DNA of 64,000 bases, taken from assembly GCF_003334335.1 (NCBI RefSeq), contig NZ_QOWQ01000003.1. One strand, given 5' to 3'. A program made the position numbers and the translations under genes. Below, piece by piece: positions 33,703 through 34,590 of this stretch; position 1 is the stretch's first letter; each line of letters begins with the position of its first letter. The notes below the pieces were generated by a model that was not told the origin of the DNA, did not search any database, and saw only the letters and a program-made list of their open reading frames with translations. This stretch comes from Escherichia coli. Lineage in GTDB: Bacteria > Pseudomonadota > Gammaproteobacteria > Enterobacterales > Enterobacteriaceae.

Positions 33703-34590
33703 GTGGTACGGCGTTTAACTTCTCCGCGGCTCGAATTTGAAGCTGCGGCAATTTATGAATATCCCGAACATTTACGTTCATTCCTTAATGACTTACCCAC
33801 CCGACCAGGGGTGTATCTGTTTCATGGTGAAAGTGACACCATGCCGCTCTATATCGGCAAAAGCGTTAACATCCGCAGCCGCGTCCTTTCTCATTTACGT
33901 ACCCCGGATGAAGCCGCCATGCTACGGCAATCCCGACGGATCAGCTGGATATGTACCGCCGGTGAAATCGGCGCTCTGCTCCTTGAAGCGCGATTAATCA
34001 AAGAACAACAGCCGCTGTTTAATAAACGGTTGCGCCGCAATCGCCAGCTCTGTGCCCTGCAATTAAATGAAAAGCGCGTCGATGTGGTGTATGCCAAAGA
34101 GGTGGATTTTTCACGAGCCCCCAACCTGTTTGGCCTGTTTGCCAATAGGCGCGCAGCTTTGCAAGCATTGCAGACCATCGCTGATGAACAAAAACTTTGT
34201 TATGGCCTGCTGGGACTGGAACCGTTAAGTCGCGGTCGTGCATGTTTTCGTTCAGCGCTAAAACGTTGCGCCGGAGCATGCTGCGGTAAAGAGAGCCATG
34301 AGGAACATGCGCTACGCTTGCGCCAGTCTCTGGAGCGTTTGCGGGTGGTGTGTTGGCCTTGGCAAGGGGCGGTGGCGCTGAAAGAACAGCACCCGGAAAT
34401 GACTCAATATCATATTATTCAAAACTGGCTGTGGCTGGGGGCGGTTAATTCGCTGGAAGAAGCGACAACGTTAATTCGGACACCCGCCGGGTTTGATCAC
34501 GACGGTTATAAAATTCTTTGTAAGCCGCTGCTTTCCGGTAACTATGAAATTACTGAACTTGATCCGGCGAATGACCAGCGAGCCAGTTGA
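33703..34590 (+). CDS. cho: UvrC-homologue excision endonuclease Cho (GTG start)
   Basis: ORF track 295 aa; GIY-YIG motif [25 protein letters not shown]. Confidence 0.92.

Follow-up and report, generated by a model that had tools for sequence, protein, structure and literature searches.

Two genes that converge on each other and share their last codons raise the question of whether the shared stretch is a device that couples their expression or only the place where two reading frames run into one another. In the window analyzed here, the whole stretch of 64,000 nucleotides of Escherichia coli DNA, this question is posed by cho (ydjQ, b1741), which encodes the excinuclease Cho of 295 aa on the plus strand (33703..34590), and ves (ydjR, b1742), which encodes the HutD-family protein Ves of 191 aa on the minus strand (34550..35125). 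Both assignments come from the open reading frames, NCBIfam, and RefSeq, and that of ves also from Pfam. As read in the sequence and the list of open reading frames, the 295-codon frame of cho is opened by a GTG at 33703 and closed by a TGA at 34588-34590 on the plus strand, while the 191-codon frame of ves is opened by an ATG at 35125 and closed by a TAA at 34550-34552 on the minus strand (tta on the plus strand). The tail-to-tail overlap of the coding regions is therefore 41 nt long (34550..34590, both strands) and holds Cho residues 283 (in part) to 295 and Ves residues 179 (in part) to 191, each followed by its stop codon, in a computed phase that sets cho codon positions 1, 2, and 3 opposite ves positions 1, 3, and 2. 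The preliminary description had claimed just this overlap, and both stop codons read in the sequence, with which RefSeq concurs, bear it out; the possibility it had left that the true ves stop lies elsewhere was checked and does not hold, as the first in-frame stop fixes the 3′ end unambiguously.

An overlap of this kind could also be produced by annotation, if one of the two stop codons were not the real end of a protein, and we consider the chance of this to be negligible. The sole hint in that direction is that the NCBIfam Cho model NF007833 ends at, and aligns only to, residue 287. Nevertheless, the frames of cho and ves are both open up to the annotated stops, Ves fits its equivalog model end to end (NF008488, 427.4 bits against a cut-off of 292, aligned over residues 1-191 of 191), and Escherichia and Citrobacter retain both stops unchanged. 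Cho itself scores 579.7 bits against NF007833 (cut-off 367), and both frames belong to established families, the homologs numbering thousands. Positions 32188-36688 of the window correspond to 1822000-1826500 of E. coli K-12 MG1655 (NC_000913.3) with no mismatch, and the RefSeq annotation of that genome, which places cho at 1823515-1824402 and ves at 1824362-1824937, gives the identical 41-nt overlap, as do the annotations of other E. coli records. The 181-nt junction is present as a single copy in 5416 of 5426 complete E. coli genomes. An artefact of annotation is thus effectively refuted and excluded for practical purposes, and the overlap is one already known, being contained in the standard E. 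coli annotation and in a published catalogue of excludons.

What the 41 nt encode bears directly on the question. In an alignment of 56 Cho C-termini, conservation extends up to the motif YEIIEL, whose last residue is L286 in E. coli, and the tails beyond it, of 0-12 aa, are hypervariable with almost no conservation; in Atlantibacter, Cho ends exactly at the equivalent of L286. In the window, the core ends in YEITEL, with L286 at 34558-34560, and is followed by the non-conserved tail DPANDQRAS and the stop (34561..34590, plus strand). Among 18 aligned Ves orthologs, the sequence is conserved as far as SEIxWLPGH (H185), to which Escherichia and Citrobacter add the six residues SPDxVQ; Ves of many other genera ends at GH (185 aa), and in others it ends earlier, at SEITYL (181-182 aa). 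In the window, the Ves core ends in WLAGH, with H185 at 34571-34573, and the tail SPDQVQ with its stop (34550..34570, minus strand) is dispensable as judged from the shorter orthologs. The Pfam HutD domain covers Ves residues 8-175. With 34560 as the last position of the Cho core and 34571 as that of the Ves core (H185 or before it), the conserved cores of the two proteins lie some 10 nt apart and do not overlap; the overlap consists of C-terminal tails only, and the 41 nt resolve into a 9-residue Cho tail, a 6-residue Ves tail, and the two stops. Structural data added nothing on the tails: the AlphaFold models of Ves and Cho (mean pLDDT of 50.9 and 50.6) were too poor to place them relative to the folds, and the HutD structures found for Ves by a PDB sequence search align only to residues 14-149 and do not cover the tail.

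The junction was then compared across Enterobacteriaceae, for which one genome per species was scanned with the Ves profile, yielding 80 loci, 59 of them with an intact cho converging on ves; the states of the junction were computed and then checked by eye. These 59 intact orthologous pairs fall by lineage into nine states, with a gap of 48 nt and an overlap of 45 nt as the extremes. The 41-nt overlap of the window is shared by 14 loci of Escherichia, the Citrobacter freundii complex, and C. amalonaticus, and an overlap of 23 nt by 17 loci of Enterobacter, Lelliottia, Huaxiibacter, and Pseudenterobacter; the others are overlaps of 32 nt (five loci, Leclercia and Silvania), 15 nt (four, Superficieibacter and others), 7 nt (five, Phytobacter and others), 4 nt of the TTAA type (six, Kosakonia), and 45 nt (one, Citrobacter sp. 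18056), a gap of 2 nt (three, Atlantibacter), and gaps of 28-48 nt with an intergenic hairpin (four, Pseudescherichia and relatives). The locus of Enterobacter sp. kpr-6 was found on inspection to have the 7-nt overlap. The difference between the two commonest states is exactly a 6-codon extension of ves, from GH and a stop to GHSPDQVQ and a stop, and the cho stop has the same position in Escherichia and Enterobacter. Variable as its length is, a tight junction of cho and ves is conserved across approximately 25 genera.

Some lineages possess only one of the two genes. In a Salmonella Minnesota contig the order is nadE-cho-spy, with ves absent; homology to E. coli ends there at the Cho core (window position 34559), and the spy terminator hairpin begins 5 nt past the cho stop, so that cho uses the spy terminator directly. 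The reverse order, spy-ves-nadE with cho absent, is found in E. albertii, six Citrobacter species, Trabulsiella, and others, which have a 60-80-nt spacer with hairpins and an unchanged Ves tail. The ves-nadE spacers of these lineages yielded no remnants of cho; one metagenome-assembled genome carries a decayed cho. Each gene is dispensable somewhere, cho or ves having apparently been lost in some lineages with the partner unchanged. A record labelled Salmonella Saintpaul, with ves and without cho, was rejected as evidence on Salmonella, its Ves tail being of the Citrobacter type; it is also contradicted by the Salmonella Minnesota contig, which has cho without ves, and by S. Typhimurium, which has been reported to possess ydjQ.

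Nucleotide diversity (π) by codon position was calculated for three data sets, namely Escherichia with Citrobacter, Escherichia alone, and the Enterobacter class, in a small test with 11-12 sites per codon position in the overlap. Within the overlap, π peaks at ves position 3, which is cho position 2 (0.29, 0.20, and 0.47 in the three data sets, respectively), and is lowest at ves position 2, which is cho position 3 (0.11, 0.00, and 0.08), while in the flank that is cho only it is cho position 3 that is the most variable (0.47). Because substitutions in the overlap follow the periodicity of the ves codons, the Cho tail is a passenger, and most of the overlap evolves as ves coding sequence, with the Cho tail taking the resulting amino-acid changes; only the last three ves codons oppose the conserved TEL of Cho. 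Diversity at ves position 3 is similar in the overlap and outside it (0.20 versus 0.17 in Escherichia, 0.47 versus 0.47 in the Enterobacter class), and since synonymous ves diversity is not reduced there in these two data sets, there is no sign of an extra constraint at the RNA level.

Nor is the length of the tails in need of a special cause. Antisense stops in the phase of the overlap occur at 0.048 per codon in 47 annotated coding sequences of the window, and a frame that enters its neighbor's 3′ end stays open for at least nine codons with a probability of 0.60-0.64 and for at least six codons with a probability of 0.72-0.74. The tails of Cho and Ves are compatible with the open-frame length given by chance in this phase. 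Within its first 50 kb, the window has five convergent pairs, with spacings of +257, +52, +40, +3, and −41 nt, so that one of the five overlaps. For E. coli, 58 convergent overlaps of coding sequences have been counted, the phase found here (123:132) is the commonest among convergent overlaps of at least 5 nt, and mutation of the stop codon is the accepted origin to which convergent overlaps are attributed (PMC2174442). The overlap, as such, needs no selective explanation.

The promoters that drive the two genes toward each other are a different matter, as they are widely kept. A pattern search placed a LexA box, CTGGATAGATAACCAG, at 33672..33687 on the plus strand, ending 16 nt before the GTG start of cho, and a CTG-N10-CAG box lies within 80 nt upstream of cho in 55 of 55 orthologous loci, against a chance rate that we estimate from the length of the pattern at about 1-2% per locus. 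On the other side, the FliA (σ28) promoter of ves, AACGTAAATCACCCGAGTTGCCGATAAC, known from its motif and from FliA ChIP and RNA-seq (PMC4183435), was located at 35178..35205 on the minus strand, with its −10 element, GCCGATAA, at 35178-35186, and 70 of the 80 loci have, upstream of ves, a σ28-type promoter that agrees with the motif at 10 or more of 12 positions. The dependence of the ves promoter on FliA was seen by ChIP-seq and by RNA levels, which were 18 units for ves, as compared with hundreds to thousands for the core σ28 genes, and 0 in a ΔfliA strain (PMC4183435). The earlier account of ves as a stress- or cold-inducible gene is accordingly an incomplete description, the documented promoter being FliA (σ28) dependent and conserved across genera. 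The promoters of cho and ves are weak or conditional. Since the LexA box and the σ28 promoter are both conserved, convergent transcription driven by an SOS promoter and a flagellar class 3 promoter is an old arrangement, and the conserved features of the locus are a spacer of nearly zero length and two facing promoters, LexA-controlled and σ28-dependent.

Where the two transcripts end is less sharply marked. A scan for intrinsic terminators from 33300 to 35500 found both strands free of terminator-like sites between 34029 and 35294, the total number of hits not exceeding that of shuffled sequences, and neither the cho stop nor the ves stop is soon followed by a GC-rich hairpin with a U-tract. 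Because the coding regions overlap and no terminator lies between them, any mRNA for full-length Cho or Ves must be complementary to the other gene over 41 nt or more, and in this respect the antisense logic of the preliminary description stands. The first terminator-like site on the plus strand past cho is the spy terminator (35250..35320), bidirectional by its sequence, with a plus-strand hairpin at 35294-35308 followed by a T-run and predicted ΔG values of −40.8 (minus strand) and −27.9 (plus strand); a very strong Term-seq 3′ end, 1825060(−), falls there at window position 35248 (PMC7815308). The same Term-seq data, whose positions were converted to the window through the MG1655 alignment, list no 3′ end for either strand at the overlap or close to it (PMC7815308), which may only reflect low expression. 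They do, however, reveal attenuation by Rho inside cho itself (33727..33972, plus strand): the plus-strand RNA has a Rho-dependent 3′ end 24 nt inside the gene (window position 33727; PMC7815308 supplementary files 1-3), and a bicyclomycin-sensitive region peaks at 33972, the drug raising the reads in the 800 nt downstream of the peak from 32 to 110 (Rho score 3.87, p 2.5e-7; PMC7815308). The overlap and part of antisense ves fall within these 800 nt, and the data show that Rho curtails plus-strand transcription inside cho in unstressed cells.

Two C-rich, G-poor, rut-like stretches lie 60-210 nt past the stops of the two RNAs, one at 34651..34740 on the plus strand (C exceeding G by up to 15 per 60 nt), a candidate site of Rho loading, and one at 34340..34400 on the minus strand, antisense to cho (an excess of 11 to 14 per 60 nt). 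They were found by a heuristic of base composition and are not mapped Rho sites; both would be compatible with the loading of Rho once ribosomes have left. Between them, 19 nt past the cho stop and inside the ves coding sequence, plus-strand folding predicts a 12-bp hairpin without a U-tract (34609..34637, ΔG −21.2 kcal/mol). Conservation of this hairpin is confined to Escherichia, and because Citrobacter loci that share the 41-nt overlap lack it, we did not accept it as a conserved element; no conserved stem-loop was found between the ends of cho and ves. RNA folding around the overlap on both strands gave z-scores of −1.66 (the hairpin region) and −0.75, neither of them significant, and an Rfam scan of 32500-36500 returned no family at the overlap.

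We conclude, with a probability of about 80%, that the overlap is real but incidental, the outcome of neutral drift of stop codons between two genes set end to end, with no special regulatory device. The genes cho and ves face each other with essentially no spacer; their stop codons would have drifted neutrally, and each frame would extend into the antisense strand of its neighbor until the first stop, leaving the 9-residue tail of Cho and the 6-residue tail of Ves. Each transcript would then end within the partner gene, most likely through Rho acting at the C-rich stretches after the release of ribosomes, and plus-strand read-through would be halted at the bidirectional spy terminator. Pairing of the antisense RNAs or collision of polymerases is possible in this arrangement, and we judge it to be a weak side effect rather than a selected switch; the mutual interference that had been proposed for the two genes is plausible from their layout but probably weak. 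The conservation of the tight junction together with the facing LexA and σ28 promoters speaks against a mere by-product, as an excludon view would read in it selection for coupled transcription, and ExcludonFinder reports that synteny is higher in the class of excludon pairs than among other neighbors (PMC12288877).

That view supposes a functional convergent excludon, in which cho transcription, once induced by the SOS response, continues on the antisense strand of ves, perhaps through the whole gene as far as the spy terminator, and σ28-driven ves transcription likewise enters cho, each lowering its partner through polymerase collision or cleavage of the duplex by RNase III, so that DNA-damage repair and the flagellar regulon would be mutually exclusive at the locus. 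The pair is in fact one of the 165 convergent excludons called in 50% or more of the 58 RNA-seq samples of MG1655 (ExcludonFinder, PMC12288877), but such a call is based on coverage, a criterion satisfied almost automatically when coding sequences overlap. The lack of a terminator between cho and ves and the LexA box and σ28 promoter (55/55 and about 70/80) conserved along with the tight junction agree with an excludon as well, and mscL/arfA is an E. coli precedent for regulation by a 3′ overlap of this sort (PMC10070815). Against this, both genes are weakly expressed, Rho attenuates plus-strand transcription within cho, either partner has been lost without a change in the tail of the other, the junction is plastic in length, and synonymous sites carry no extra constraint. 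Our literature search for an interplay specific to cho and ves found nothing, and the supplements of Fitzgerald 2014 contain no expression values for cho or ves. On balance we hold a functional excludon to be unlikely. It is likewise doubtful, and slightly more so, that the facing LexA and σ28 promoters across a junction without spacer form a real regulatory device; if they did, heavy DNA damage would send cho antisense transcription through ves to the spy terminator and switch off ves of the flagellar regulon, ves transcription in motile cells would damp the basal level of cho, and the SOS response would be linked to the motility program in Enterobacteriaceae.

A third reading would make the junction a programmed bidirectional terminator driven by collision, of the kind seen by SEnd-seq, with the hairpin at 34609-34637 positioning the converging polymerases so that both transcripts end, independently of Rho, at defined sites a few tens of nucleotides apart. 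The class has been reported for hundreds of convergent pairs of E. coli and requires a stem-loop in the nascent RNA (bioRxiv 10.1101/2022.10.23.513370), and a stable stem-loop does lie shortly past the cho stop. However, it lies inside the ves coding sequence, where on the minus strand it precedes the ves stop by 60-85 nt, so that a collision there would truncate the ves mRNA; it is absent from Citrobacter with the same overlap, its fold z-score is not significant, and Term-seq lists no 3′ end at the hairpin on either strand. Moreover, termination by collision depends on promoters that fire often on both sides, as those of cho and ves are unlikely to do, and we regard this reading as very improbable.

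Taken as a neutral by-product, a striking coding overlap of 41 nt resolves into two dispensable tails, which makes of it a worked example and little of a discovery, and it cautions that not every convergent overlap, nor every excludon called from coverage, implies regulation. What is added here are modest refinements: the restriction of the overlap to the tails, the nine states of the junction, the constraint dominated by ves, the reciprocal loss of the genes, and the conserved facing LexA and σ28 promoters. The one feature that might reward an experiment is the family-wide opposition of an SOS promoter and a σ28 promoter with no terminator between them.

The locus can be set beside four kinds of known systems. 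The excludons of ExcludonFinder (Sanmartin et al., NAR 2025, PMC12288877) include cho-ves in their Table 1, and the pair resembles them in its short or negative distance and its lack of a terminator; unlike a regulatory excludon, defined by mutually exclusive expression through interference or RNase III, cho/ves is known by coverage and sequence, and because its transcripts overlap by virtue of the coding regions, the criterion of coverage adds little information. With mscL/arfA (PMC10070815) it has in common a tail-to-tail order in Enterobacteriaceae, a spacing that varies by lineage (overlapping, proximal, or distal), and a transcript whose 3′ end is antisense to the 3′ coding sequence of the other; for mscL/arfA, deletion and complementation gave a more than twofold effect on the partner mRNA, and a stem-loop processed by RNase III is involved (PMC10070815), nothing comparable to either being known for cho/ves. 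Collision terminators (Ju et al. 2019; Wang et al., bioRxiv 10.1101/2022.10.23.513370) are similar in being convergent, without canonical intrinsic terminators, and with a stem-loop near the boundary, and differ in that the stem-loop of cho/ves is within the ves coding sequence and not conserved, its 3′ ends are not mapped, and both its promoters have low activity. The closest counterpart is the convergent overlap formed by mutation of a stop codon (Lillo and Krakauer 2007, PMC2174442). From this kind cho/ves differs only in that its 41 nt exceed the very common 4-nt overlaps of the TTAA type, a form that the Kosakonia orthologs have exactly, and it shares with it all four features compared: genes of established families, an overlap made of C-terminal extensions beyond the cores, stop positions and overlap lengths that differ among orthologs, and tails of a length compatible with chance. 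The two are bona fide genes on opposite strands that share their 3′ ends in the commonest phase, and they form one of the roughly 58 convergent overlaps of E. coli (PMC2174442).

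Comparison of the nadE-cho-ves-spy region among the Enterobacteriaceae reveals reciprocal gene loss at the same locus, ves being gone in Salmonella and cho in Escherichia albertii and several Citrobacter. In the Salmonella Minnesota contig GCA_010405705.1 (L087) the order is nadE-cho-spy, without ves, and the spy terminator hairpin lies directly after the cho stop codon (L087 2905-2990). The opposite arrangement, spy-ves-nadE without cho, is found in E. albertii (L009), in which identity with E. coli stops 3 nt beyond the ves stop, and in Citrobacter spp. (L013, L016, L017, L020-L022). 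The genome GCA_016412205.1 (L084), labelled S. enterica serovar Saintpaul, has ves but no cho, and the tail of its Ves matches the Citrobacter freundii-complex type exactly; since this contradicts the Salmonella Minnesota contig, possible explanations are a mislabelled record or transfer of the locus. In the soil metagenome-assembled genome CTSoil_132 (L043), a decayed cho at 3558-3873 is reduced to three fragments (residues 1-58, 56-75, and 253-287) and the adjoining ves carries an internal stop, so that both genes appear to be decaying, unless these are assembly errors. The cho-ves pair is also not the only convergent junction in the window to lack a spacer, as tcyP (+) and ydjO (-) converge with a gap of just 3 nt (22513-22517).

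On the cho side, the nadE-cho spacer includes an Rfam match to the ES036/CssrF sRNA (33553-33595, +) that scores above threshold (42.9 bits, for a gathering score of 37.6), adjoined by a below-threshold match to the REP-derived naRNA4 (33513-33549, -); REP-like palindromes are present in this spacer. Within cho, a Rho-dependent 3' end has been mapped just 24 nt into the gene (33727, +) and a bicyclomycin-sensitive termination region approximately 270 nt into it (33972, +) by Term-seq/DirectRNA-seq (PMC7815308). In unstressed cells, Rho may prematurely terminate transcription of cho, or of nadE read-through entering cho.

On the other side of the pair, the spy terminator hairpin (35250-35320) is bidirectional by sequence, with a U-tract on the minus strand and UUAAGUUUUUUGG on the plus strand. 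Since spy is strongly stress-induced, read-through of its terminator could, speculatively, contribute part of the induction of ves by "various environmental stresses". In E. coli 675SK2 (L003), identical to the window in all other respects, ves and spy are separated by an IS1A insertion (1992-2689) that lies in or beside the ves promoter region. A σ28 (FliA) promoter, located in the window at 35178-35205 (-), is kept upstream of ves in approximately 70 of the 80 Enterobacteriaceae loci, with a perfect or near-perfect -10 element, GCCGATAA, among loci L004-L083. Because of this conservation, ves seems to have belonged to the flagellar class-3 regulon for a long time, even though its name refers to induction by stress.
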